Source of the DNA: an uncultured Bacilli bacterium
Lineage (GTDB): Bacteria; Bacillota_I; Bacilli_A; RF39; UBA660
Assembly (NCBI GenBank): GCA_934096075.1
Contig: CAKOLN010000001.1
Coordinates: 79,242 to 143,241 of the forward strand
Direction of reading: 5' to 3'
Length of the DNA: 64,000 bases
Shown: positions 1,252-55,793 of the stretch, piece after piece
Position numbering within the stretch: position 1 is the stretch's first letter
Layout: every line of letters begins with the position of its first letter
Position numbers and translations under genes: made by a program
The notes under the pieces: model-generated
Seen by the model: only the letters and a program-made list of their open reading frames with translations
Told to the model about the DNA's origin: nothing
Database searches by the model: none

Positions 1252-3456
1252 ATGATTAAGTTAGATAAGGTAAGTAAGTATTATTATTCTAATGGTATGG
1301 TGAGTTCTGGAATCTCTAAAGTTTCTTTGGAATTTAATATGGGTGAATTTATTGCGATTACTGGTGCTTCAGGAAGTGGTAAATCAACATTATTAAATGT
1401 AATAAGTGGTCTTGATACTTATGAAGATGGAGAAATGTATATTAATGGAAAAGAGACTAGTCATTATACAGAAAGAGAATATGAAGATTATAGAAGAAAT
1501 TATATTGGTAATATATTTCAAAACTTTAATCTTATTAATAGTTATACTGTTTATCAAAATGTTGAATTGGTTCTTTTATTAAATGGATATAAAAGAAGAG
1601 AGGTTAAATCAAGAATATTAGATATTTTGAAGAAAGTTGGACTTTATAAGTATAGACATACTAAAGTATCTAAATTAAGTGGTGGTATGAAACAACGTGT
1701 TGCGATTGCGAGATGTTTGGCAAAAGATACACCTATAATAATTGCTGATGAACCTACTGGTAATTTAGATTCTAGGTCTGCAGAAAGTATTATTAAATTA
1801 CTAAGTGAAATAAGTGAATATAAATTAGTAATAATTGTAACACATAACTACGACCAAGTAAGTGAGTATGTTACAAGAAAAATTACTATGCATGATGGAA
1901 GAGTAATTGAAGATAATAAAATAAAGGATTATAAAAAAGTAGATAATTTTAATTTAAGTACTAATAAAGATGCTAAGATAGTATCAAAATTAAGACTTGG
2001 TATTAGAAATACATTTAATATATTACCAAAGTTCTTATTACTTAGTTTTGTGTATTTGTTTATTATTTTTGCAATTAGTATGACATATGCTTCTTTTCAA
2101 AAAGGTGAATATGAGTCAAGTATAAGTGGAAGTAATTCATTTTTTAATACTAAAGATTTAGAGAAAAGAATTATTATTAGGAAGTTAGATGGAACAAATA
2201 TAACTGATGAAGAATATGAAAGTATTTCTCATATTAATAATGTAGATTATATTGTTAGAGATGATTTAGTTTTAGATAATCAAATAGATATTTATGATAA
2301 TGATGTTTATTTATATGGATATGCTAATGAGGCTTCTAAGTTTAAAGGTAAAGTTGATTTAGGAAGAAATATTGAAAATGATAACGAGATAATAGTTAGT
2401 GGTAGTAAGAATAATTGGTATTTGAGTGATGGAGATAAAATATTAGACAAAGAACTTAATATTGAAGGAATATATAATAGTGATGGAAGTGAGTATAAAG
2501 TAAAGATCGTAGGTATTTCTTATGATGAGTCTAGAGAATATGAGTTAGATTTTTATATGAGTAGTACATTAATAAATAAATTTAATAAAACTTTGATTAA
2601 TAGATTTAGTAAGATGTCATTTTTATTTAATGATAAGTTAGTTAATTATGATTATGTATCTAGTGATATGTTAGTATCTAGTGATAAAGTACCTGAAGGA
2701 ACAGCATTTATTAGCGAAAATGATAGTTATAATTGTAAGAAGGGTAATTGTAAAAAAACTAATTTAGAAGTATCTTTAACAAATCAAAAATTTACTAATA
2801 AAATAGATTTAACTATTACTAATGAATATAATAAGAGTAATATTAAGAGATTATTAGGTATAGATTATAATGATGAGCATTCTAATTCTATTTATGTAAA
2901 TCAAGCAGATTATGATAAGTTATATGATATGAACAGTTATCAATCTAGTGTGTTTATTAAAGATTATAAAGAAAAAGATAGTGTTATTAATACATTAAAA
3001 GATATGGGATTTGATACTTTCTATCTTAAAGATGGTTTATATATATCTACAATGGTAGGTGTTCTTAGAATAGCAAAATTATTAGTTATGGTTACTTTGA
3101 TAGTAGTTTTATTCTTTATAAGTTATTTTGTAATTAAGTTAATACTTAAATCTAGAAATATTTACTTTAGTATTATAAGAATGCTTGGTAGTAGTATTAG
3201 AACAACAAAAAGATTATTAGATATAGAATTATTAACAATTACTAATTTAATGTATTTGATTTATATTACTTTCTTAGAATTAGTTAAGCATAATGTTATA
3301 GCTAGTGGTATGAAAGATACCTTGAGTTATTTAGGATTAAAGGAAAATATAATTATTTATGTTATTTTAATAGTTATGACATTCTTATTAAGTACTAAAT
3401 ATGCTAGAAAGATATTTACTAATAGTTCTATGAGTGTTTATAGGAGTGAGGTGTAA
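1252..3456 (+). CDS. ABC transporter, fused ATP-binding/permease (MacB/FtsX-like)
   Basis: Walker A GASGSGKST, signature LSGGMKQRVAIAR and Walker B IIIADEPT are present. One TM segment follows the ATPase, then a ~470-aa extracytoplasmic region, then a C-terminal 3-TM FtsX-like block. Confidence 0.8.
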   Translation: MIKLDKVSKYYYSNGMVSSGISKVSLEFNMGEFIAITGASGSGKSTLLNVISGLDTYEDGEMYINGKETSHYTEREYEDYRRNYIGNIFQNFNLINSYTVYQNVELVLLLNGYKRREVKSRILDILKKVGLYKYRHTKVSKLSGGMKQRVAIARCLAKDTPIIIADEPTGNLDSRSAESIIKLLSEISEYKLVIIVTHNYDQVSEYVTRKITMHDGRVIEDNKIKDYKKVDNFNLSTNKDAKIVSKLRLGIRNTFNILPKFLLLSFVYLFIIFAISMTYASFQKGEYESSISGSNSFFNTKDLEKRIIIRKLDGTNITDEEYESISHINNVDYIVRDDLVLDNQIDIYDNDVYLYGYANEASKFKGKVDLGRNIENDNEIIVSGSKNNWYLSDGDKILDKELNIEGIYNSDGSEYKVKIVGISYDESREYELDFYMSSTLINKFNKTLINRFSKMSFLFNDKLVNYDYVSSDMLVSSDKVPEGTAFISENDSYNCKKGNCKKTNLEVSLTNQKFTNKIDLTITNEYNKSNIKRLLGIDYNDEHSNSIYVNQADYDKLYDMNSYQSSVFIKDYKEKDSVINTLKDMGFDTFYLKDGLYISTMVGVLRIAKLLVMVTLIVVLFFISYFVIKLILKSRNIYFSIIRMLGSSIRTTKRLLDIELLTITNLMYLIYITFLELVKHNVIASGMKDTLSYLGLKENIIIYVILIVMTFLLSTKYARKIFTNSSMSVYRSEV

Positions 3457-3457
3457 T

Positions 3458-5872
3458 ATGATTAAGTTAATTAATGTTAATAAGTATTTTAATAGACATA
3501 GAAAAAGTGAAATACATGTTATAGATAATACTTCTTTAGAGTTACCTGACAATGGATTAGTTACATTTTTAGGTGAAAGTGGATGTGGTAAAACTACTCT
3601 TTTAAACGCTATAGGTGGTTTAGATAAAGTTAATAAAGGTAAAATAATTATTGATGGAGAAAAGATAACTGGTAGAAGTATAAATAAAGTTGATAAGATA
3701 AGAAGTTTAAAGATAGGTTACATATTTCAAGATTATAATCTTATAGATAATATGACTGTTTTTGATAATGTTGCTTTAGCACTTAAAATGAATGGTTTAA
3801 AAGATAAAACTGAAATAGAAAAAAGAGTTAATTATGTTTTAGAACGTGTTGGAATGTATAGATATAGAAAAAGACTTGCTAATATGCTTAGTGGAGGAGA
3901 AAGACAAAGAGTTGGAATTGCAAGGGCTATTGTTAAGAATCCTAAGATTATTATCGCAGATGAACCTACTGGTAATTTGGATAGTAAGAATACTTTAGAA
4001 ATAATGAATATAATTAAATCAATTTCTAGGGAAAGATTAGTAATTTTAGTAACACATGAAAAAGATATTGCTGAATTTTATTCAGATAGAATATTGCATA
4101 TACAAGATGGTAAAGTTATTAGTGATGAAAAAAATGAGGTTCCAAGTGATTTAGATTATAGATTAGATGGTAAGATTTATTTAAAAGATATTAAAAATAA
4201 AGAAACTGTTAATAAAGATAATTTAAAGATAAATTATTATAATGATAATAATGAAAAAATTGAATTAGATATTGTTCTTAAGAATGGTAATATTTATATA
4301 AATAGTAAGACTAATGAAAAGGTTGAAGTTCTTAATAATGAATCTACTGTTGAATTTGTGAATGAACATTATAAAAAGATAGATAAAAGTATATATGAAA
4401 ATTATAAATTTGATTTAGATAGTGTAAGTGATAAGAATTATAAAGTTAGATACTCAAGTATATATAATCCAATTACTTCTTTAGTTACAGGTATAAAGAA
4501 AGTATTGAATTATAAAGCAGTGAAAAAAGTGTTATTGTTTGGTTTTGTATTGAGTGCGATGTTTATAACATTTAGTGTATCAAGTATACTTGCTTCATTA
4601 AAAGTGGATGAAAAGAACTTTTTAACATATAATAAAAACTATTTATTAGTTAATGATAAACAAGTGTCTTTAGATGATTTTGTTAAGTATAGTGATAATG
4701 AAGATATAAAGTATGTTATACCAGGAGAATCTATTGTGACATTTATATTGAGGTTTAATAAGTATTATCAAACTTTTAATAGTAGTGTTAGTTTAACTGG
4801 ATCTATGACTGATAAAAGTTATTTAAGTGAAAATGATATTATATATGGTAGAAGTATTAGTGAATCTAATGAAATAATTGTTGATAAATTTATTATAGAT
4901 AAAGTGATAAATGAAGACTATAATCCTAAGATGGCTGGATATGGTAAAGCAATTGATTACATTAATCAAGTTGTTAGTTTAGGTGGTGTTAAAGATTATA
5001 CTATAGTAGGTATATCTGATACTGGAGAGCCAAATATTTATGTTAGTGATAGTGAATTTTATACAATTATAGATAATAGCAAAGAAGATTTATATTCATA
5101 TGATGAAGAAAGTACTGTTGTTGATTATAATTTAGTAAGTGATTTTACTTTGGTTAAAGGTAGAATGCCAGAGAATGCTTATGAAGTAATAATTAATAAT
5201 GATTTAAGTGATACTTATAAATTAAATAAAACAATAGATACAAAAATTAATGATACTAAACTTACTGTTGTTGGTTATTACACAAGTTTAAGTAATATTA
5301 ATAAGTATTTAGTTGGACCAGAAACAATAAGAATAAAGGTTATAACTTCTACAAGTAATGTGAGTGTTTATACTGAAAATAAAGAGGCAGTAACAAAATA
5401 TTTTAAAGACAATGATATAAATGTTGAAGATTCTTATAAGAAAAGTAAAGATGTTTATATGTCTGATATTAGAGATAGTTTGAATAGTAAGTTATTATTT
5501 AGTGGAATTATTTTAGTTGTTTCATTAGTGGAAATTTTCTTGATGATTAGAAGTAGTTTCTTATCTCGTGTTAGAGAAGTTGGTATTTTAAGAGCTATTG
5601 GATTTAAAAGAAGAGATATTTATAAGATGTTTGGTGGAGAAATACTTGCGATTACATTACTTGCTAGTACACCTGGATATTTAATAATGAGTTATATATT
5701 GTATCAATTAGCAAAGATGCCTTATGTAAGTAGTTATATTGAATTTAGTCCAATTATGTTGATTGTAAGTTATGTTTTAATATTAATGTTTAATTTAGTA
5801 TTTGGATTAATACCGGTTTATAGAACAATTAGTAAAAGGCCTGCAAGAATATTAAGTAGAAATGATGCATAA
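3458..5872 (+). CDS. ABC transporter, fused ATP-binding/permease (MacB/FtsX-like), second subunit
   Basis: Walker A GESGCGKTT, LSGGERQRVGIAR and IIIADEPT are present, with the same architecture as the upstream gene. ATG at 3458 follows an AGGAGTGAGG RBS. The ORF track begins upstream at 3434. Confidence 0.8.
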   Translation: MIKLINVNKYFNRHRKSEIHVIDNTSLELPDNGLVTFLGESGCGKTTLLNAIGGLDKVNKGKIIIDGEKITGRSINKVDKIRSLKIGYIFQDYNLIDNMTVFDNVALALKMNGLKDKTEIEKRVNYVLERVGMYRYRKRLANMLSGGERQRVGIARAIVKNPKIIIADEPTGNLDSKNTLEIMNIIKSISRERLVILVTHEKDIAEFYSDRILHIQDGKVISDEKNEVPSDLDYRLDGKIYLKDIKNKETVNKDNLKINYYNDNNEKIELDIVLKNGNIYINSKTNEKVEVLNNESTVEFVNEHYKKIDKSIYENYKFDLDSVSDKNYKVRYSSIYNPITSLVTGIKKVLNYKAVKKVLLFGFVLSAMFITFSVSSILASLKVDEKNFLTYNKNYLLVNDKQVSLDDFVKYSDNEDIKYVIPGESIVTFILRFNKYYQTFNSSVSLTGSMTDKSYLSENDIIYGRSISESNEIIVDKFIIDKVINEDYNPKMAGYGKAIDYINQVVSLGGVKDYTIVGISDTGEPNIYVSDSEFYTIIDNSKEDLYSYDEESTVVDYNLVSDFTLVKGRMPENAYEVIINNDLSDTYKLNKTIDTKINDTKLTVVGYYTSLSNINKYLVGPETIRIKVITSTSNVSVYTENKEAVTKYFKDNDINVEDSYKKSKDVYMSDIRDSLNSKLLFSGIILVVSLVEIFLMIRSSFLSRVREVGILRAIGFKRRDIYKMFGGEILAITLLASTPGYLIMSYILYQLAKMPYVSSYIEFSPIMLIVSYVLILMFNLVFGLIPVYRTISKRPARILSRNDA

Positions 5873-41940: not shown

Positions 41941-42112
41941 AAATAAAGGAGCAAACGAAAACTATGAAATTAAATAATTTCTTTTATAACAAAACAATAG
42001 TTTGTTATGGGGGGGGGTTTATTACTAACTAACTCTCATAGTTTTTGTTTTACATTAAATTCATAGGCACAAGTCTATGGATTTTTTCGTGTGTGAGAAA
42101 AGAGGTAAAGGT
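41941..42112 (+). promoter_or_regulatory. Conserved 5' leader, copy 1
   Basis: About 170 nt, about 90% identical to 48757-48922. It contains a GGAG RBS, a uORF (41964-42032), a G9 tract (42009-42017), a hairpin AAATTCATAG-loop-CTATGGATTT plus TTTTT, then the RBS AGAGGTAAAGG of the main gene. Confidence 0.55.
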
Positions 42113-44875
42113 ATGAAATTTATAAAAACAAAAAAGGGTATTTTTTATGGAGTAGTTTTTTTACTAATGATAACATTAGGAGTGAGTTATGGGACTTTTG
42201 TATTTGTATCAAATCCATATAAATCAAGTAATATGTTAATAAGCAATTTATTATATGGAGTTAGTATACAAGAAGAAGGTAGTACAAGCGAAATAGATAA
42301 TAATAAGGTAACAATACCGGCTAAAACTAAAGGATATTTTTATGTAACAATATCAAGTGTAAATAAAATAGATAGTAAATATACTTTGGCTTACAAATCA
42401 ACAAATACGGTGAATGTAAAATATACTGATAGAACTAACTGGAATCCAGAAGGATTAATAAAAGGTTATGATGAAACTACTTATAGTAAGAAAGTAAAAG
42501 TGGTGGTAGATAATACATCAAATACAAGTAGTACAGAGGTAACGTTTGGTGTGTTTGGTGGATATACTTATAATTCATATGAAACAATAAGTTTAGAAAA
42601 TGGCTATTTAACCATAAATGGTCCATATACAGAGGTTATACAAGGAACAAATAGATTAGTTGATATAGTAGAAAAAGATACCTCATGTATAACAGAAGAA
42701 AATAAAACATGTATGTATGGAGGAGAAACTATAAGTAACTACTTACAATACCCAGTGAATGATGATGTTACAAAAAATTTATGGAGAATAATTGGAACAT
42801 ACAATATAGATGGAGAAGTAGTAACAAAGGTAATAAGTATAACAAATGGTATAACGACACAAAGTACGCTGATGACAGATTTAATTAGCTTCTATAATAC
42901 ACTAGAAGAAAAAGAAAAATATGTATATAATACAAATAAATTTAATTGTGATACAAAATGTAATACGAGTAGTTTTACAAATATAGGAATTCTTAATAAG
43001 TATGAATATGATGTTATAGGTGGAGACAATTCATATTTGAAAGAATATGTACCATTTTATATATTAAATAATGGTGAAGTAGAAAATCTATATAGTACAG
43101 AAACAAGTAGTAATTTGAGAGGAAATATATATTTTCAAACAGATGTTAAAGTAACAGGAAGTGGAACAAAAACTGATCCATATAAAGTAAGTAAAGGACA
43201 AGATGTGAATTTAGTAGCTTATACTTTAAATGGAGAATCTACGACGAAAACATATGAATGGTTAAAAACGAATAATGCAATTAATGGAATAAGCTGTGAA
43301 AATGGTTCGGTTGCAGAGTGGGATTATGATAAAAATGGAATATATTTTTCAAAAGTAAATGTTCCTGATTATTGTACAGTAGATTTTGGAGATGGATATA
43401 CAGTGACTTTAAAAGCATTAAATGGTACTGTGACAAGTGCAACATCAATTTCAGTTGGAGAGAATGGAACAGCTTTATTTACAATAACTCCAAATAGTGG
43501 TTATACATTAGATGGCTCAACAGTTACATGTACTGGAAGTGGTTTAGCAGATATAACAACAAGTGGTGTTAAGGTCAGTAATGTAAAAAGTAGTCAAACT
43601 TGTATTATAACATTAGATAAAATAGGTACAAGTTTAGCAAATCATATAATAAATACTTATACAACAAATAATGCAGTAGGTACAAGGACAAGCTTTTCGT
43701 CAGCATTTACAGAAAAAAATAATAAAATATATTCAACAAATAGAACGGAAGATGGAAGTACGGTTTACTATTATGCAGGAAATACAATTAATAACTGGGT
43801 GAAGTTTGGTAAATATACCAAAACTGTAGTAAGAGGTTATGATTCAAGTTCAACAAATATAACTTTACACTATAAGGAATTTAATAGTATGTCTGATTGT
43901 ACTAATGATGAATATTACAAATATAATTGTGAATATGCATGGAGCGCAGGAGACGATATGTATTGGAGAATTATAAGAACAAACGAAGATGGTAGTGTAA
44001 GACTATTATATGCGGGAAATGGTCCAGATACTAGAAACGGTTATATTAGTCCTAGTTTGATTTATAATATTAGTGTTTCAACTTCACATATGGGAGTAGG
44101 ATATATGTATGGGGAAATAACTTCATCTGGTACAGGTAATTATTCTTTAGAAAAGCTAAGAGCAAATACAAATCCTAGTACAGTTAAAATAGCTGTGGAT
44201 AAGTGGTATGTTGATAACATTTTAGATAGTTATGGTAAGTATGTAAGCAAGACAGCAATATATTGTAATGATAAGAGTATTTATTATTCAGGATCTTCAA
44301 GTTTAGTTCCATCAATTTATTCAGGTAGTAGCACTATTTTTGGATCCTATACTAGAATAATTACTGATAATTATTTAACATATAAATGTGGAAGTAATTC
44401 AAGTGGTGTACTTAATGTTACTGCAAGTGATGCGGATAAATTTAATGCATCTAAAGATGACAAATACAAAAATTATGGTAAATTAAATTGTAGTGTTAAT
44501 GGATATATGAATGAAGATTGTCCAGTAGCACTTATGACTGGAGATGAACTTGCATTTGCGGGCGCAAATTTTAACTCGGAGAATGCATCAGCTTGGTATG
44601 CTGTTAATAGTAAAGCCAAATCTGTAAATAATGGTAATGTTTGGTTAACAATGACTCCAGCAAGTTTTAATGGAAATAACAATGGTACAGGTTCACCCGG
44701 AGTTTTGGGTGCAACAGGAGATGGAAGATTAGCTGGTTCACAAACTAATGTAAATAGTATTATACGTCCAGTCCTTAGTCTTAAAGCTTGTGTTAAATAT
44801 TCTAAGGGTGATGGTACGTCAAGTAATCCATACGAAATAAGTATAAATGATGTATGCGCAAATGCTGAAAATTAG
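42113..44875 (+). CDS. Large secreted protein with TasA/camelysin-like N-terminal domain, paralog 1
   Basis: Signal/TM followed by GTFVFVSN (compare camelysin GTFAFFSD). The central region is Thr/Ser-rich. The C-terminal ~330 aa are shared with the 48923 gene: TEDGSTVYYYAGNTINNWVKFGK, YWRIIRTNEDGSVRLLY, YPVALMTGDELAFAG, IRPVLSLK, NPYEI. Confidence 0.55.
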   Translation: MKFIKTKKGIFYGVVFLLMITLGVSYGTFVFVSNPYKSSNMLISNLLYGVSIQEEGSTSEIDNNKVTIPAKTKGYFYVTISSVNKIDSKYTLAYKSTNTVNVKYTDRTNWNPEGLIKGYDETTYSKKVKVVVDNTSNTSSTEVTFGVFGGYTYNSYETISLENGYLTINGPYTEVIQGTNRLVDIVEKDTSCITEENKTCMYGGETISNYLQYPVNDDVTKNLWRIIGTYNIDGEVVTKVISITNGITTQSTLMTDLISFYNTLEEKEKYVYNTNKFNCDTKCNTSSFTNIGILNKYEYDVIGGDNSYLKEYVPFYILNNGEVENLYSTETSSNLRGNIYFQTDVKVTGSGTKTDPYKVSKGQDVNLVAYTLNGESTTKTYEWLKTNNAINGISCENGSVAEWDYDKNGIYFSKVNVPDYCTVDFGDGYTVTLKALNGTVTSATSISVGENGTALFTITPNSGYTLDGSTVTCTGSGLADITTSGVKVSNVKSSQTCIITLDKIGTSLANHIINTYTTNNAVGTRTSFSSAFTEKNNKIYSTNRTEDGSTVYYYAGNTINNWVKFGKYTKTVVRGYDSSSTNITLHYKEFNSMSDCTNDEYYKYNCEYAWSAGDDMYWRIIRTNEDGSVRLLYAGNGPDTRNGYISPSLIYNISVSTSHMGVGYMYGEITSSGTGNYSLEKLRANTNPSTVKIAVDKWYVDNILDSYGKYVSKTAIYCNDKSIYYSGSSSLVPSIYSGSSTIFGSYTRIITDNYLTYKCGSNSSGVLNVTASDADKFNASKDDKYKNYGKLNCSVNGYMNEDCPVALMTGDELAFAGANFNSENASAWYAVNSKAKSVNNGNVWLTMTPASFNGNNNGTGSPGVLGATGDGRLAGSQTNVNSIIRPVLSLKACVKYSKGDGTSSNPYEISINDVCANAEN

Positions 44876-48756: not shown

Positions 48757-48922
48757 ATAAAGGAGCTAATGAAAACTATGAGATTAAAGGATTTTTTATA
48801 TCATAACAATAGTTTGTTATGGGTGGGGTTATTATTAACTAACTCTCATAGTTTTTGTTTTATATTAAATTCATAGGCACAAGTCTATGGATTTTTTGGT
48901 ACTATAAAAAATGGAGGTAAAG
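48757..48922 (+). promoter_or_regulatory. Conserved 5' leader, copy 2
   Basis: Paralog of 41941-42112. The uORF 48778-48876 (32 aa) has its stop inside the 5' arm of the AAATTCATAG...CTATGGATTT hairpin. The G-tract is interrupted (GGGTGGGG). Confidence 0.55.
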
Positions 48923-50704
48923 ATGAAAGAAAAGAAATATTTAGTACTAGGCATAATGATAGTACTACTAACATTTGTAGGAGTATCACTAGCATACTTC
49001 TTAACAACAATAGAAGGGGATAGAAAAAATATTACAATTAATACAGCAGACTTAAGAGTAATATTTAATAATGGAGACGAGATAGAAGGAACGGAGATAG
49101 AACCAGGATGGAGTGTAACTAAAACATTTAGTGTAGAAAATAAAACTAAGAATGAATATAAATATAATATAGTAATAGAAAATTTAGTAAACACATTTAA
49201 GACAATAGGATATTTACAATACAAAATAACAAGTACAGATGGTGGATACAACATGACTGATTTTGAAGATGTACCAAAATCATCAAGTGCAACAGATGCA
49301 GTACTATCATATAGTGTATCAATACCATCAAAATCAACACAAAACTATACAATAACAATACAATATAAAAATGATGAGAATGTAGATCAAAGCATAGATT
49401 CGTTAAATAATGCAGTAGTAACGGGAAAACTATATATAACTGAGGGTACGACAAATTCAAAATTGTTAACTCAAGCAATGTTAGAAGATAATCCAACAAT
49501 AGAAGAAAGAACAGACTTTAATGTGGCAAACACAGCAACAACAACAGGAACAATCTATCAAACAAATAAAACAGAAGATGGAAGCACAGTGTACTATTAT
49601 TCAGGAAACACAATAAACAACTGGGTAAAGTTTGGAAAAGAATCAATACAAGAATGTACATATAACGGTGACCAAGTACATTATGGTATTTATGATGAAA
49701 ACACATCTATTTCTTATAAAAATATAAGAGGAGTTGCTTCAATCGATGAATGTGTTTCATTTAATATTTGTTTAGATAGTGAATATGGACCTATAGTTGG
49801 TTTAGCTGATGAAGAAGAATGTGAAAAAGCTGGTGGTAATTGGACAACTGACAAGGCTATAGTTGGTGAAAAGTTAGAAAAAGATATATATTGGAGAATA
49901 ATAAGAACAAATGAAGATGAAGGTGTAAGGCTCTTATACTCTGGAACCAATCCTGATACAACATCAGGATATATAGGCATATCTCAATTTAATGAAAATA
50001 ATAACGGTCCAATGTATGTAGGATATATGTATGGAACGAGTGGAACATTAGAAAATAACCGAAATAATACAAGTGATAGTACAATAAAGACACACATAGA
50101 CATATGGTATAGAAATAATTTATTGACAAACTATGAAAAGTATATAAGTAAAAGTGCAATTTATTGTAATGATAGAAGTACTCGAAATAATTCGTACTCT
50201 ACTAGTAATTCATTCTATTATGGTGGTTACACAAGATTAGCTACATATAAGAATCCATCGTATAAATGTGGAGCAAATACAAGTAATGGTTTATTTGAAA
50301 GTACACAAGCAGTAGAAGATAAATTTAGTGCAAGTACTGAAGGTGGAGGAAATGGACAACTTACATATCCAGTAGCACTTATGACTGTGGATGAAGTGTC
50401 TTTTGCGGGTGGCAAGTATAGTACATCTAGTCCTAACACATGGTATTATGCAAACAGTAATGGAGATTCAATTACAGGAAGTACTATGTGGTGGTCTTTA
50501 TCGCCTTCTGGTTTTTATAATTCTAATATTGATGTGTTTAGAGTCGAAGATGGCTTTCTAGGTTACGATGTATACTATACATTATCTGTTATCCGTCCTG
50601 TCATAAGTTTAAAATCATGTGTTGAATATTCTTCTGGTAATGGGACTCCAGAAAGTCCTTATGAAGTAACAATAGATGATACATGTGCTAGTGCTGAAAA
50701 TTAA
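48923..50704 (+). CDS. Large secreted protein with TasA/camelysin-like N-terminal domain, paralog 2
   Basis: Signal peptide then SLAYFLTT...NITINTADLRVIFNN...IEPGWSVTKTFSVENKTKNEYKYNIVIE (compare camelysin AFFSD...NTFATGTLDL...LKPGDTIEKEFKLENKGSLDIKKV). The C-terminal domain is shared with the 42113 gene. Confidence 0.6.
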   Translation: MKEKKYLVLGIMIVLLTFVGVSLAYFLTTIEGDRKNITINTADLRVIFNNGDEIEGTEIEPGWSVTKTFSVENKTKNEYKYNIVIENLVNTFKTIGYLQYKITSTDGGYNMTDFEDVPKSSSATDAVLSYSVSIPSKSTQNYTITIQYKNDENVDQSIDSLNNAVVTGKLYITEGTTNSKLLTQAMLEDNPTIEERTDFNVANTATTTGTIYQTNKTEDGSTVYYYSGNTINNWVKFGKESIQECTYNGDQVHYGIYDENTSISYKNIRGVASIDECVSFNICLDSEYGPIVGLADEEECEKAGGNWTTDKAIVGEKLEKDIYWRIIRTNEDEGVRLLYSGTNPDTTSGYIGISQFNENNNGPMYVGYMYGTSGTLENNRNNTSDSTIKTHIDIWYRNNLLTNYEKYISKSAIYCNDRSTRNNSYSTSNSFYYGGYTRLATYKNPSYKCGANTSNGLFESTQAVEDKFSASTEGGGNGQLTYPVALMTVDEVSFAGGKYSTSSPNTWYYANSNGDSITGSTMWWSLSPSGFYNSNIDVFRVEDGFLGYDVYYTLSVIRPVISLKSCVEYSSGNGTPESPYEVTIDDTCASAEN

Positions 50705-51769: not shown

Positions 51770-51890
51770 AGTACCTCTATTATACACTTATTTTAAAAAT
51801 AAAACATCATAAAAATAAAATAGAAGACTACTTTGGTTTGGAAAAGCAGTCTTCATATATCTCAATCGGAATGAGAATTAGTGTCATATT

Positions 51891-51967
51891 TGGTAGCGAC
51901 GCTCGGAATCGAACCGAGAACCTCACGGGTATGAACCGTGCGCTCTAGCCAGTTGAGCTACATCGCC
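51891..51967 (-). tRNA. tRNA-Met or tRNA-Ile2 (anticodon CAU)
   Basis: The reverse complement GGCGATGTAGCTCAACTGGCTAGAGCGCACGGTTCATACCCGTGAGGTTCTCGGTTCGATTCCGAGCGTCGCTACCA folds as a cloverleaf with anticodon loop TTCATAC. A hairpin terminator lies downstream at 51822-51855. Confidence 0.8.
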
Positions 51968-52029
51968 ATCACTGAAACAAATAATACCAAAAAAAATGTA
52001 TCTAGTCAATAGTTTTTGATGAATTTGTA

Positions 52030-52058
52030 TTGACTTTATCAAATATATATATGATAAT
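52030..52058 (+). promoter_or_regulatory. Putative sigma-A promoter
   Basis: TTGACT, 17-nt spacer, then GATAAT preceded by TATG, upstream of the small ORF and the HerA-like gene. Confidence 0.4.
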
Positions 52059-52064
52059 TTAATC

Positions 52065-52388
52065 TTGGTGATTAAAGTGAATGGATTAGTAGTGGTAACT
52101 CATTCAATACAGTTTAAGGATAAAGATGAATGTTACATTGATGAACTAAAAAGAGTATTAAGAAAATATAAAAAAATAACAAAAATATATTTAAAAAGAA
52201 ATCCAGAGGATAAAATGTGCTTAGTTGTTGAAGGTATAAAAGAATTATATGGACATTATTCTGAAAAAGAAAATATTTTTTTTGATGCAGTAAACAATAA
52301 TATTTATTCAATAGAATATTTAAAAAGATTAAAAGATTTTGTTTTAAAAGAAAAAATATGTATGGTTAAATCAAAAATACTTTATTAA
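52065..52388 (+). CDS. Hypothetical small protein (107 aa)
   Basis: ORF with no recognisable motifs, immediately upstream of the HerA-like ATPase. Start is TTG or GTG. Confidence 0.35.
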   Translation: MVIKVNGLVVVTHSIQFKDKDECYIDELKRVLRKYKKITKIYLKRNPEDKMCLVVEGIKELYGHYSEKENIFFDAVNNNIYSIEYLKRLKDFVLKEKICMVKSKILY

Positions 52389-52434
52389 AAGATAAAAATG
52401 TGTTATTCTATTATTAGAATAAAGGGTGTTAAGT

Positions 52435-54180
52435 ATGTTTGGAAAAATATTAGAAATAGATGAAAATAGGGTAATAATAGAAAATGCAAAAAAGGAAACT
52501 CATTCTGAATTTATGAATTGTCATATAATTTTTGAAGAACCTTCTAAAAAGACTGTTGGTGAAATTACTAAAATAGATGATAATTTTATAAACGTTCTAT
52601 TAATTGGAGAAATAGAAAATAATGTCTTTTCAGCAGGAGTAGTAAAAAAACCAGCGACTAATTCACTAATTAGAATTATTAATGTAGGAGAATTGGAATT
52701 AATAATAGGTAAGAGTGATCCAAAAGGAAATTTAGTTATAGGTAATTCTGCTATATACAAAACATTTAATATTACAATACCAATAAATTCTTTTTTTGCT
52801 AATCATTCTTCAATTATTGGTAATACCGGAAGTGGTAAATCGTGTGGTGTGTCTAGAATATTAGAAAATTTATTTATAAATAATCCATATAAACCAGTAA
52901 ATTCTCATTTTGTAATATTTGATGCTTATGGAGAATATAAAAATTCTTTTAAAAAACTAAATCAAATAGAAGGCTTAGGATTTAAAAAATATACTACAAA
53001 AGTAGAAGTAGAAGATGAAGTTCTACTTAGAATACCTCCTTTCTTTTTAGGTGCTGATGATCTTGCAATATTATTATCAGCTGATGATTCTAGTCAAATA
53101 CCGGTATTAGAGAAAACTTTAAAATTAGTATATATTTTTACAAGTACTGATGAAAAAATTAAGGAATATAAAAATGATATAATAGCTAAATGTTTATTAG
53201 ATATATTAACAAGTGGGAAAAGTGGTAGTCAGATGAGAGACCAAATAATAGCGGTTTTATCTCATTACAATACTGAAGATTTAAATTTAGAATCTATTGT
53301 AAAACAGCCTGGTTATGATAGAACTCTTAAACAATGTTTATTAATTGATGAACAAGGTAAGATGAATGCAATATTGTTAGTAACTGAATTTTTACATCAA
53401 TTTGAAAGAGTTAATCTAGATAATATTGTTATGGGAGAAGGATTTACATATACTTTAAATGATATTTATTATGCTTTGGAATTTGCATTAATAAGTGAAG
53501 GTACAATTAATAGTAATAATCAATATGATAAAAATAATATTTTAAAAACAAGATTACTTACTATTATAAATTCTGATTTAGCACCTATATTTGAAATAAA
53601 TGAATATTTAGATAAGGATTTATATATTAATAAATTATTTGATAAGGCATCTTTAATTGATATTAATTTAAATCATATAGATGATAGATATGCTAAAATT
53701 GTAACTAAATTAATGTCTAAGATTTTGTTTTCTTATTCAACTAAGCAAAAAGTAAGAGGTTCTTTTTCAGTTAATTTAATATTAGAAGAAGCACATAGAT
53801 ATGTTCAAAATGATAATGATGTAAATATTATTGGTTATAATATATTTGATAGAATTACTAAAGAAGGAAGAAAATATGGAACTTTGCTAACATTTATTAC
53901 TCAAAGACCTAGTGAATTGTCAACAACGGCTATTAGTCAATGTTCTAATTTTATAGTATTTAGATTATACCATCCTAAAGATTTTGATATTGTTAAAAAT
54001 TTAAGTACAAATGTAAATGATGAAACATTAGAGAAAATTAAAAGTTTGAATCCAGGTACAGCACTTGTATTTGGAACTGGTTTTAAAGTTCCTCTACTTG
54101 CTAAATTTGAATTACCGACAATTATGCCAGAAAGTACTAGTGTAGATCTTAATAAATTGTGGTATACAACCAGTGTTTAA
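52435..54180 (+). CDS. HerA-like ATPase (HAS-barrel plus DUF87 FtsK/HerA-type P-loop domain)
   Basis: The N-terminal ~90 aa have a HAS-barrel pattern. Walker A GNTGSGKS, Walker B LILEEAHRY and sensor FITQRPSELS are present. ATG at 52435 follows an AAAGGGTG RBS. Confidence 0.65.
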   Translation: MFGKILEIDENRVIIENAKKETHSEFMNCHIIFEEPSKKTVGEITKIDDNFINVLLIGEIENNVFSAGVVKKPATNSLIRIINVGELELIIGKSDPKGNLVIGNSAIYKTFNITIPINSFFANHSSIIGNTGSGKSCGVSRILENLFINNPYKPVNSHFVIFDAYGEYKNSFKKLNQIEGLGFKKYTTKVEVEDEVLLRIPPFFLGADDLAILLSADDSSQIPVLEKTLKLVYIFTSTDEKIKEYKNDIIAKCLLDILTSGKSGSQMRDQIIAVLSHYNTEDLNLESIVKQPGYDRTLKQCLLIDEQGKMNAILLVTEFLHQFERVNLDNIVMGEGFTYTLNDIYYALEFALISEGTINSNNQYDKNNILKTRLLTIINSDLAPIFEINEYLDKDLYINKLFDKASLIDINLNHIDDRYAKIVTKLMSKILFSYSTKQKVRGSFSVNLILEEAHRYVQNDNDVNIIGYNIFDRITKEGRKYGTLLTFITQRPSELSTTAISQCSNFIVFRLYHPKDFDIVKNLSTNVNDETLEKIKSLNPGTALVFGTGFKVPLLAKFELPTIMPESTSVDLNKLWYTTSV

Positions 54181-54195
54181 AATGATATAATAGTA

Positions 54196-54219
54196 GGCAA
54201 TTCATTGAGTTGAATTGCC
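54196..54219 (+). terminator. Perfect 9-bp hairpin (terminator or processing site)
   Basis: GGCAATTCA-ttgagt-TGAATTGCC lies 15 nt after the HerA-like stop. The downstream tract is A/T-mixed rather than pure U. Confidence 0.4.
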
Positions 54220-54259
54220 TATAATAATTTGTGAATGGTTAAATAATCATAAAATATAA

Positions 54260-54630
54260 AAAGATAAAGAATATATTTATAGTAAGTGTGGAGATGTATC
54301 TCTAGCAACACATCTTTATCCCTCAGATAAAATTGGATGAGATGAAGTTGGTAAGAGAGATAGGTTTTGTGTTAAAGTTATAAAAACTAAAGGAGAATTT
54401 GTAGGTATTTGAAATAAAGATAGAGATTTAATTGGTATAGATGTTTCTGGTTATATATTATCAAAAGTTAAATGTAGTTATTTAAAATTAGAAAAGCTAG
54501 TTTACATGTATTATACAGATTGCTTGCGTGAATATAATGAAAAACTATTTACAGATAAAACACCAGGATTTGAATTTGTCAAAGTAGAATACTTGCATCT
54601 AGAAATGGAATTAATAAGACATTTAGTATA
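54260..54630 (+). pseudogene. Decayed ORF fragment interrupted by two in-frame TGA codons
   Basis: A 123-codon frame open from 54260, with no ATG or RBS at its head. It is interrupted only by TGA at 54338 and 54404, in contexts KIG*DEVGK and VGI*NKD. Its codon usage looks protein-like (...GEFVGI.NKDRDLIGIDVSGYILSKVKCSYLKLEKLVYMYYTDCLREYNEKLFTDKTPGFEFVKVEYLHLEMELIRHLV). Confidence 0.35.
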
Positions 54631-54779
54631 AATGAAACTTTGGAAAAATATTCAATTTAACTATTAGTGAATTGGTTAGTTTGACACATAGAGAAAATAG
54701 TCCTTGGACTAAATCAAACAAAATAATAACTGATGATATGATAATTAAATATCATAAATATGAAAAGGAAGTGTAAATA

Positions 54780-55793
54780 ATGAAAGATATAGTTTTAACA
54801 GGAGATAGACCTACAGGTAAGTTACATTTAGGACATTATGTAGGTTCACTTAAAAATAGAGTGGAAATGATGAATACAGGTCTTTATGATATGTATGTAT
54901 TTTCTGCTGATATGCAAGGTTTAACAGACAATGCTAAAGATATTAAAAAGATAAGAGAAAATGTTTTTGAAGTAATTAAAGATAATTTATCAGTAGGGTT
55001 AGATCCAGAAAAAGTTACTATTTTTGTACAATCTGGAGTACCAGAATTAACTGAATTAACAATGTATTATTTAAATTTGGTGACGCTTAGTAGACTTAAA
55101 AGAAATCCAACTATTAAAGAAGAAATAAAACAAAGAGGATTTGAAGAAAGTGTGCCAGTTGGATTTTTAACTTATCCTATAAGTCAAGCAGCAGATATTA
55201 CTGCATTTGATGCAACTTTGGTACCAGTTGGAGAAGATCAAGTTCCAATACTTGAACAAGTTTGTGAAGTTGTAGATACATTTAATAGACTATATGGAGA
55301 AACTTTAGTTAGACCTAAATATGTTTTGCCTGAAAATAAAAATGCTAGAAGGTTACCAGGTATAGATGGAAAAGCAAAGATGAGTAAAAGTGCAGGTAAT
55401 TGTATTTATTTAACAGATGATACAGAAACAGTTAGAAAGAAAGTAATGAGTATGTATACGGATCCTAATCATATTAAAGTAAGTGATCCTGGAAATACTA
55501 AAGATAATCCTGTATTTATATATTTGGATGCATTTATGACTGATAGAGAAAAGTTTGAAGAATTAAAGAATCATTATGAACAAGGCGGTCTTGGAGATAA
55601 AGTTGTTAAAGAAACTTTATTTGAGGTATTAGAAAGTGTTTTAACTCCAATAAGAGAGAAAAGAAAGTATTATGATGAACATCCAGAGATTGTTGAAAAT
55701 ATTGTTAAAGAGGGAACTAAGAAAGCCAGAATTAAAGCAAGTGAAACATTAAAAAGAGTTAGAGAGAGAATAGGTGTAGAATACTTTAATTAA
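54780..55793 (+). CDS. trpS: Tryptophan--tRNA ligase
   Basis: Class I motifs: HIGH-like TGKLHLGHYVG and KMSKS. Confidence 0.9.
   Translation: MKDIVLTGDRPTGKLHLGHYVGSLKNRVEMMNTGLYDMYVFSADMQGLTDNAKDIKKIRENVFEVIKDNLSVGLDPEKVTIFVQSGVPELTELTMYYLNLVTLSRLKRNPTIKEEIKQRGFEESVPVGFLTYPISQAADITAFDATLVPVGEDQVPILEQVCEVVDTFNRLYGETLVRPKYVLPENKNARRLPGIDGKAKMSKSAGNCIYLTDDTETVRKKVMSMYTDPNHIKVSDPGNTKDNPVFIYLDAFMTDREKFEELKNHYEQGGLGDKVVKETLFEVLESVLTPIREKRKYYDEHPEIVENIVKEGTKKARIKASETLKRVRERIGVEYFN

Follow-up and report, generated by a model that had tools for sequence, protein, structure and literature searches.

The closest described systems join a HerA-family ATPase to an effector. In SIR2-HerA (Nezha; PDB 8j4u/8su9 and 8wiv), which is plasmid- or island-borne and is found on Listeria and Enterococcus plasmids, the HerA gene lies downstream of a SIR2 gene, which overlaps it by 8 nt on those plasmids. 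The structure of the Paenibacillus complex shows that the N-terminal barrel of HerA holds SIR2 (PMC11472057), and in one E. coli Sir2-HerA type, HerA alone is a nickase (PMC13434337). DUF4297-HerA (PDB 9c1m, 8xau, and 8ziq) has a DUF4297/Cap4-like nuclease as its effector. Other HerA homologues belong to the core genome, and that of Deinococcus is said to work in DNA repair, with NurA or RecJ. In Thermus thermophilus, the core-genome homologue HepA is present in all strains and is required for competence, for the donation of DNA, and for resistance to ultraviolet (UV) light and heat (PMC5448004). Here, we describe a HerA-type gene in a 64,000-nt stretch of contig CAKOLN010000001.1 (the whole stretch is called the window hereafter) from an uncultured Bacilli bacterium, where the gene lies between a tRNA-Met gene and trpS. 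An earlier note on this DNA had taken the gene, a small open reading frame (ORF) upstream of it, and a decayed frame downstream as a mini-island that was either an undescribed HerA-associated system with a small partner, or a degraded defence island. We think it probable, instead, that the region holds three unrelated things on an ordinary chromosomal backbone, and that its HerA has a role in maintenance of the chromosome.

The ATPase is, judged by its sequence, a genuine member of the HerA family, and nearest to the anti-phage subunits of SIR2-HerA. Its ORF at full extent occupies 52426-54180 on the + strand (584 aa from a GTG). The likely start is the ATG at 52435, which gives 581 aa (52435-54180), a choice that agrees with the 578-583 aa of relatives; the 582 aa given in the earlier note thus needs a small correction, whereas the motifs that it listed (GNTGSGKS, LILEEAHRY, and FITQRPSELS) are all present. 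The protein scored 60.6 bits against Pfam PF01935/DUF87, above the gathering cut-off of 23.2, and matched the PADLOC HerA model PDLC04102 over nearly its whole length (3e-102), so that its assignment to the HerA type stands. The Pfam models for FtsK, AAA_10, and TrwB were all below cut-off, and a conjugative ATPase of the VirB4/TraC kind, which would have spoken against that assignment, was rejected (AAA_10, 18.5 bits vs a cut-off of 27.5; CD1110 VirB4, 30 bits vs 325). The NCBIfam HerA_antiphage equivalogs were far from reached, with 153.8 bits vs 800 for NF042943 and 142.4 vs 850 for NF042944. The motifs GNTGSGKS (Walker A), LILEEAHRY (which includes the Walker B LILEEAH), KEGRKYG, and TQRPSELS are invariant in 17 members of the clade and in the SIR2-linked HerAs.

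Comparison with solved structures led to the same group of proteins. The best match in a PDB search was 9c1m (6.5e-37 for the sequence alone, 4e-57 for a profile), and the top matches were the HerAs of DUF4297-HerA and SIR2-HerA complexes, with the archaeal HerA 4d2i weaker at 1e-21. An AlphaFold2 (AF2) model built from a shallow alignment was poor (mean predicted local distance difference test score, pLDDT, of 55), and only its N-terminal domain and the ranking of its matches were used; Foldseek ranked the solved structures in the same order as the sequence search, with the DUF4297-HerA proteins at the top of the list. In a plasmid collection, the closest proteins were the Listeria and Enterococcus HerAs (32-33% identity over 91% of the length), whose genes directly follow a SIR2 gene in the 8-nt overlap described above. 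A phage collection yielded no full-length HerA match, and two partial ones that covered ≤49% of the query, one of them annotated as a terminase large subunit.

The domain plan of the window HerA comprises a putative N-terminal beta-barrel of the HAS type, a RecA-like core, and a helical insert. Family and domain order are those of SIR2-HerA, with no difference in the Walker A and B, KEGRKYG, or TQRPS motifs, and the protein aligns end to end with the SIR2-linked HerAs. The main difference lies in the barrel, where three deletions of 10, 15, and 10 aa remove ~35 residues of the domain that docks SIR2 in SIR2-HerA. Residues 1-90 are all-beta in the poor AF2 model (pLDDT of 60-87 for this block, 55 for the whole), and the region aligns with the barrel of the SIR2-linked HerAs apart from those deletions. 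By homology to the solved HerA hexamers, the protein would assemble as a hexameric ring, load onto DNA, and translocate it at the expense of ATP. The setting of the gene also differs, since what lies upstream in the window is a tRNA gene (~115 nt away in relatives) and not SIR2, and since the window HerA is chromosomal, syntenic, and vertically inherited. Thermus HepA and Deinococcus HerA are hexameric ATPases that act in DNA repair, competence, or DNA transfer, and they resemble the window protein in being lineage-wide members of the HerA family and not mobile defence genes; they are, however, of the archaeal or NurA-linked type, while the window HerA is nearer to the anti-phage branch.

To place the gene among its relatives, contigs with HerA (numbered L001 onwards) were read that came from three sources: look-ups of exact proteins, a scan of species-representative genomes with trpS as the anchor, and a scan of metagenomes. 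In the window, tRNA-Met(CAT) lies at 51891-51967 on the - strand (ARAGORN; Rfam tRNA, 65.6 bits), as the earlier note had said, and trpS, the conserved right-hand neighbour, at 54780-55793 on the + strand (Pfam tRNA-synt_1b, 2.7e-53). The order tRNA-Met(-), ~115 nt, HerA, trpS, response regulator, and histidine kinase is common to the relatives whose HerA is 60-99% identical to that of the window and whose flanks could be read. The tRNA-Met/HerA/trpS part of this order is kept with HerA proteins that are 99% (L001), 88% (L091-94), 87% (L095-97), 84% (L107, where the regulator genes do not follow trpS), 70% (L009), 68-69% (L004-6, L010, and L108-111, with no tRNA in L005), and 60% (L011) identical to that of the window. 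At 74% identity, the L007 contig ends too near HerA to show the tRNA, and contigs L011 and L091 end before the regulator genes. The divergent tRNA-Met/HerA pairing is conserved across the clade, with ~115 nt between tRNA-Met and HerA in L001, L004, L006, L009, L011, L091, L093, L095, L097, and L107-110, and ~900 nt in L010.

The gene order even survives replacement of trpS by another TrpS type (~30% identity) in L004-6, L009, and L108-111. One example of such an in-place replacement is at 7841-8827 of L004; in relatives of this kind, HerA is 68-70% and the response regulator 67-70% identical to its counterpart. No empty tRNA-Met to trpS site was found among the relatives recovered. Where TrpS is ≤66% identical, HerA is not beside trpS, and in L050 it directly follows a 942-aa ORF that we recognised by eye as leuS. 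In three contigs (L132, L171, and L173; HerA 58-61% identical), a tRNA-Lys(CTT) gene on the - strand takes the place of tRNA-Met, ~130-150 nt upstream of HerA.

These observations do not fit the mini-island that the earlier note had proposed, and its lack of synteny with the surrounding genes was not borne out, the order being kept wherever the flanks are readable. The same note had foreseen that finding the genes at this locus in all relatives would argue for a core gene; HerA is there in every relative recovered, and it is the small ORF and the decayed frame that vary. We rejected a tRNA-associated genomic island, given that HerA is in all relatives, that the module has neither an integrase nor flanking repeats, and that its guanine-plus-cytosine (GC) content is typical (0.21-0.26, the same as the flanks, in a window of 25% GC). 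Nor is the tRNA gene supported as the integration site, since HerA sits on its 5' side and the tyrosine integrase gene of L010 abuts the opposite, 3' side. In L010, 46 nt separate the end of that integrase gene (2903-4234) from the 3' end of the tRNA gene, and elements there integrate away from HerA; in L005, HTH (helix-turn-helix)/phage-like genes lie upstream of HerA. As far as gene order can tell, HerA is thus not part of a mobile defence island, and appears to be a stand-alone gene fixed in a clade of uncultured low-GC gut Bacilli.

The gene also appears to be transcribed on its own. A conserved upstream region (52374-52434, alignment A1) contains TGnTATnnT at 52401-52409, followed by the Shine-Dalgarno sequence AAAGGGTG, both kept in seven lineages. 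Six columns of alignment A1 (T522, G523, T525, A526, T527, and T530) are invariant in 7/7 lineages and coincide exactly with TGnTATnnT, and we infer that this is the extended -10 promoter element of HerA. Downstream, a terminator-like hairpin lies at 54193-54222 (RNAfold, -21.7 kcal/mol). The perfect 9-bp hairpin of the earlier note exists but is longer, with 12 pairs. A hairpin and T-run 3' of HerA were found in six lineages (the window, L095, L010, L004, L009, and L091). With its own putative promoter and terminator, herA is by all appearances monocistronic.

Purifying selection on HerA is as strong as that on TrpS. The ratio of non-synonymous to synonymous substitution rates (omega) for HerA was 0.028 between the window and L001, where TrpS has no differences from which it could be computed, and 0.076 between the window and L095. 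Against L091, omega was 0.071 for HerA and 0.129 for TrpS, with a non-synonymous rate (dN) of 0.086 for HerA that is below the 0.100 of TrpS; against L007, the values were 0.159 and 0.124, respectively.

We found no effector that could complete a known system. As the earlier note had stated, no NurA, Sir2, or DUF4297 partner is recognisable in the window, whether by Pfam and PADLOC scans or by tblastn with SIR2. The tblastn search gave no match in the window or in ~180 loci, with no SIR2 relative at E ≤ 0.01 in any of the 80 HerA loci of the metagenome scan. The Pfam tables of the relatives' HerA neighbourhoods contain no NurA (an unlinked NurA was not searched for), and in the relatives' gene maps no DUF4297/Cap4-like nuclease adjoins HerA. 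In this respect, the window differs from DUF4297-HerA, the nuclease of which has no counterpart next to the window HerA, nor in the small ORF, which matches no family.

Effector genes are missing beside more distant HerAs as well. The metagenome scan recovered 80 full-length homologues with 43-84% identity, whose immediate neighbours belong to many families, the largest being found in 13/80 loci. Among the neighbours identified by Pfam are the YqeH GTPase, M16 peptidases, RNase J, SepF, DivIVA, and a HIT protein; a YqeG phosphatase is next to YqeH near HerA in L103-105 (precomputed Pfam hits), and DnaE was recognised by eye alone. On one branch, with HerA at 45-48% identity, sepF directly follows HerA and divIVA is next in seven loci (L150, L152, L169, L172, L176, L180, and L183), and in two more (L168 and L170) sepF is one gene beyond HerA, for a total of nine sepF loci, seven of them with divIVA. 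HerA on this branch is often preceded by two M16 peptidase genes. The proximity to sepF and divIVA may be chance in compact genomes, or may hint at a link to cell division. The HerA of L106, which has an in-frame stop at a lysine position, also carries an Asn/Glu-rich N-terminal extension of ~87 aa.

The small ORF upstream of HerA has a different history. At 52017-52373 (+ strand), the window carries a haplotype-specific insertion of ~357 bp, seen in alignment A1 and in a BLAST comparison that set the breakpoints at 52016 and 52374. The insertion is present in the window, L001-3, and L100-102, is absent from L091, L095, L107, L004, L009, and L011, and is tied to one HerA allele of the source species. 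It brings with it the promoter-like TTGACT-17-GATAAT (52030-52058, + strand) and nearly the whole of the small ORF, the last codons and stop of which fall in ancestral HerA-upstream sequence. The promoter-like match named in the earlier note is present; such matches are, however, not enriched in this AT-rich stretch (31 vs 25.8 ± 5.2 in shuffles). Terminal repeats, a target duplication, and other signs of a mobile element did not rise above the AT-rich background at the insertion. The 5' end of the insertion might be a partial duplicate of the HerA promoter.

The 107-aa ORF of the earlier note is present (52065-52388, + strand, from a TTG), but the likelier start is the GTG at 52077, which gives 103 aa, as the sister contig L001 has ATG in this place and GGTGA comes before it. 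Two close homologues, with 97% and 89% identity, were found in a search of 5.8 billion clusters, and nothing credible outside the species among 1.84 billion cluster representatives, where the other hits were the 89% homologue, a 75-aa fusion that has the last 26 residues in common with the ORF, and brief stretches of low identity to long proteins unrelated to it. Pfam, PADLOC, and NCBIfam assigned the ORF to no family, and its 3' end had no match in viral contigs. An AF2 model (pLDDT of 62) has a beta-alpha-beta-beta-alpha-alpha order; Foldseek found no significant fold match in the PDB, the best hits being generic alpha/beta folds with E > 0.03 and TM < 0.46. The ORF has no similarity to two other candidates that we considered, a 326-aa gene upstream of HerA in L007 and a 107-aa ORF downstream of HerA in L095. 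Part of it recurs elsewhere, in that 421-533 of L090 is 98% identical to 52309-52421 of the window, covering the last 27 codons of the ORF and 33 nt of HerA-upstream sequence; this copy is fused after the first 51 codons of a gene for a Cof-type HAD (haloacid dehalogenase) hydrolase, upstream of a gene for a secreted protein. This copy may have arisen by duplication or recombination, or may be an assembly artefact.

Is the small ORF a gene? Compared with L001, it has 12 synonymous and 12 non-synonymous changes where ~18% synonymous would be expected (binomial test, P = 4e-4), with an omega of 0.20, while the other two frames, at 1.1-1.4, look neutral. In addition, an open frame of 107 codons would arise by chance with a probability of ~6e-5 per frame at this base composition of 25% GC, and the L001 version starts with ATG after its GGTGA Shine-Dalgarno. 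Set against this is the view that the ORF is an open frame in inserted non-coding DNA, to which we give limited weight. It draws on the lack of homologues and family matches, the low-confidence structure model, and the non-ATG start in the window. The substitutions are also not independent, given that half of the differences from L001 cluster within 23 nt, but the clustered changes are conservative hydrophobic swaps. A third allele has two differences, both of them non-synonymous. The ORF is therefore, in our view, probably a real, young, and strain-restricted gene, and not a conserved partner of HerA.

The decayed frame downstream of HerA likewise appears to be no part of a HerA system. The ~560 nt between the HerA hairpin and trpS hold broken reading frames, including the ~370-nt remnant with two in-frame TGA codons reported earlier, a frame of ~366 nt at 54266-54631; a second piece lies in a different frame at 54640-54777. 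In L095 and L097, two ORFs of 75 and 107 aa and then a 237-aa protein lie between HerA and trpS. The 237-aa protein matches SocA_Panacea (PF13274) at 5e-14, and tblastn aligned the broken frames of the window to it with 79-90% identity. The repaired remnant has no direct match in Pfam, and its identity came through the intact L095 copy. Panacea antitoxins are known to pair with small alarmone-synthetase toxins. The 107-aa ORF of L095 scored 19.9 bits against RelA_SpoT, below the Pfam cut-off of 27, and the toxin-like gene (7813-8350 of L095) is split into the overlapping 75-aa and 107-aa ORFs, in which we recognised N- and C-terminal RelA/SpoT synthetase motifs by eye; the L095 toxin may thus already be frameshifted.

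A base-by-base alignment with these copies places the decayed SocA/Panacea (PanA-type) antitoxin gene at 54249-54777 (+ strand) and accounts for its state. A 634-nt deletion at the 5' end took away the two short ORFs together with the beginning of the antitoxin gene. What is left has two nonsense changes (TGG to TGA and TTA to TGA) and deletions of 6, 94, and 1 nt, of which the 94-nt one runs through the core of the Panacea domain. The remnant is identical in L001 and is truncated differently in L107. Reading TGA as tryptophan (code 4) was rejected, as the genome uses TGA as a stop and TGG for Trp, and the intact homologue has TGG and TTA at the two positions. The earlier note was therefore correct that the gene is decayed, but not that it is a lost partner of HerA. 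From these alignments, it is the defunct antitoxin gene from a toxin-antitoxin cassette formerly located in the HerA-trpS gap. Compared with PanA/toxSAS systems, in which terms the sister strain has a PF13274 protein after two RelA/SpoT-synthetase-like ORFs, the window has lost the toxin ORFs and the antitoxin start, and two stops and frame-breaking deletions disrupt the rest.

HerA itself lies within a block that varies between strains. Compared with L095, the left flank is 99.5% identical over 4.7 kb up to 48747 and the right flank is 96.6% identical from 54582, while in the ~6 kb between 48748 and 54581 the strains differ sharply. This block contains the tRNA gene and HerA, genes for a secreted protein and a glycosyltransferase, and the site of the toxin-antitoxin cassette. 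The L095 block has no counterpart of the 597-aa secreted protein, and it carries the three-ORF cassette, intact, after HerA. The glycosyltransferases of the window and L095 are 47% identical, and their HerAs 87% at the protein and 83% at the DNA level. Between L095 and L096, the block is 100% identical and the sequence to its left 38-80% identical, and L107 has a third HerA allele (84%) beside a trpS that is 96% identical in DNA. This pattern suggests that lineages have exchanged the block by recombination, or that the metagenome contigs are chimeric. The alleles are saturated at synonymous sites (synonymous rate, dS, ~1) and strongly constrained, and because of this they look as if they were imported from neighbour lineages by homologous recombination and not as if they were fast-evolving.

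Taken together, the evidence leads us to favour a role for HerA in chromosomal DNA maintenance (repair or end processing, segregation or division), which it might fulfil alone or with partners encoded elsewhere, as do the HerA homologues of Thermus and Deinococcus; we consider this the most likely function because the gene is found throughout the relatives in conserved synteny, under strong constraint, and among housekeeping genes. HerA would then be an ancestral monocistronic gene, fixed between tRNA-Met and trpS, that shares common ancestry with the SIR2-HerA motor. Several observations weigh against this. The nearest characterised relatives are immune HerAs, and the best PADLOC model is the same as for the SIR2-linked HerA of Listeria. 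Two distant solo HerAs are broken, by a frameshift in L103 (5001-6765) and a stop in L106 (5262-7007); these copies may be pseudogenes or assembly errors, and if the former the gene may be dispensable in some lineages. No effector gene is in the ~90 HerA neighbourhoods, but whole genomes were not searched for an unlinked one. Finally, strains with left flanks that are 99.5% identical nonetheless have HerA alleles that are 83% identical in DNA, with a toxin-antitoxin cassette inserted beside one of them, and a variable block of this sort is also how a fixed defence locus could look. We therefore regard an HerA that is still immune, acting as a single-gene defence or as the motor of an effector encoded elsewhere and fixed at a recombination-prone locus, as clearly less probable than a maintenance role, but as a serious alternative. 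The 32-33% identity to SIR2-HerA proteins and the shared PADLOC model would suit it, as would the nickase activity of HerA alone in the one E. coli type (PMC13434337), through which an effector-less HerA could in principle damage DNA. It would also suit the 83-87% alleles in near-identical backgrounds, with the block swapped between lineages, and the toxin-antitoxin cassette that adjoins HerA in the sister strains. On the other hand, HerA is universally present and syntenic, with housekeeping genes for neighbours and no effector near it, and its omega is in the same low range as for TrpS. With a dS of ~1 the alleles are old, and their turnover may be hitch-hiking with hypervariable genes next door, which encode a glycosyltransferase and surface proteins; the score of 154 bits, too, is far from the 800 of the NCBIfam HerA_antiphage cut-off.

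The two possibilities raised by the earlier note fare worse. An undescribed two-gene system on a small island, made up of the small ORF and HerA, is improbable in our estimation. The two genes are neighbours in the same orientation, no terminator separates them, the ORF is apparently under coding constraint, and it occurs only with one HerA allele; yet it is absent from all of the other HerA loci examined (>90), and has no homologue outside its own species, let alone one that accompanies HerA in other genomes. The earlier note had itself counted such a lack of co-occurrence against a partnership. Moreover, the conserved promoter of HerA lies 3' of the small-ORF stop, and in L001, where HerA is 99.5% identical in protein, the small ORF differs at 7.4% of its bases, which argues against tight co-evolution; nor are there island features, such as an integrase, flanking repeats, or a GC shift. 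Still less probable is a recently degraded SIR2-HerA island that lost its effector and whose HerA is heading to decay. Such an island could explain a HerA of the SIR2-linked type with a decayed gene next door, and the 10-, 15-, and 10-aa deletions in the barrel, the SIR2-docking domain in the Paenibacillus structure (PMC11472057). However, the absence of an effector is ancient, and homologues with as little as 43% identity share it in many contexts; HerA itself is unbroken and under strong constraint; and the decayed neighbour is an unrelated antitoxin gene. Under the maintenance reading, the ~357-bp insertion, in association with one HerA allele, would have created an orphan protein of 103-107 aa, and the former cassette in the HerA-trpS gap would have encoded a small-alarmone-synthetase-like toxin and a Panacea-domain antitoxin, of which a dead antitoxin fragment is left here.

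What seems to remain of the earlier note, then, is an effector-less and vertically inherited HerA subfamily that scores as an anti-phage HerA. More speculatively, and with considerable doubt, this might be a large and undescribed sister group of the SIR2-HerA motors in reduced-genome gut Bacilli that was co-opted for a housekeeping DNA transaction (repair, segregation, or division), or else that acts as a single-protein immune motor or nickase, with one strain lineage adding a small accessory protein that arose de novo. Defence finders, and readers, take HerA-like ATPases as markers of anti-phage systems; here is a subfamily that has its best matches among anti-phage HerA models, and yet behaves as a core-chromosomal gene that lacks an effector. 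The solo HerA is therefore a caution for island and defence calling, and suggests a possible exchange of a DNA motor between immune and housekeeping roles. If it does serve chromosome maintenance in uncultured small-genome Bacilli, the known uses of bacterial HerA broaden; protection against phage by HerA alone would instead make it a minimal HerA system. As for the orphan ORF and the antitoxin remnant, they are strain-level variation of an ordinary kind.

Other features of the locus can be given briefly. A terminator-like hairpin at 51823-51854 belongs to tRNA-Met. On the - strand, a promoter-like site for the tRNA (TTGACT-17-TATTAT with a TG) lies at 51981-52009; it is ancestral intergenic sequence, and its TAGTCAA block is invariant in alignment A1. 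An Rfam scan (E ≤ 1) found no T-box or other RNA leader upstream of trpS or in the module, the tRNA being the sole match. The genetic code is standard, in that the stops of the 42 open frames of at least 200 codons (all six frames) are 26 TAA, 9 TAG, and 7 TGA. To the left of the tRNA, the window encodes two paralogous large proteins, of 597 aa (48911-50704) and 932 aa (42077-44875), which match no Pfam or PADLOC family. Both have an N-terminal hydrophobic segment that ends in AYF, which we take to resemble a SipW-type signal peptide. The 597-aa protein, absent in L095, is only 58% identical in L001 despite flanks that are 97-100% identical, and is probably a hypervariable surface protein.

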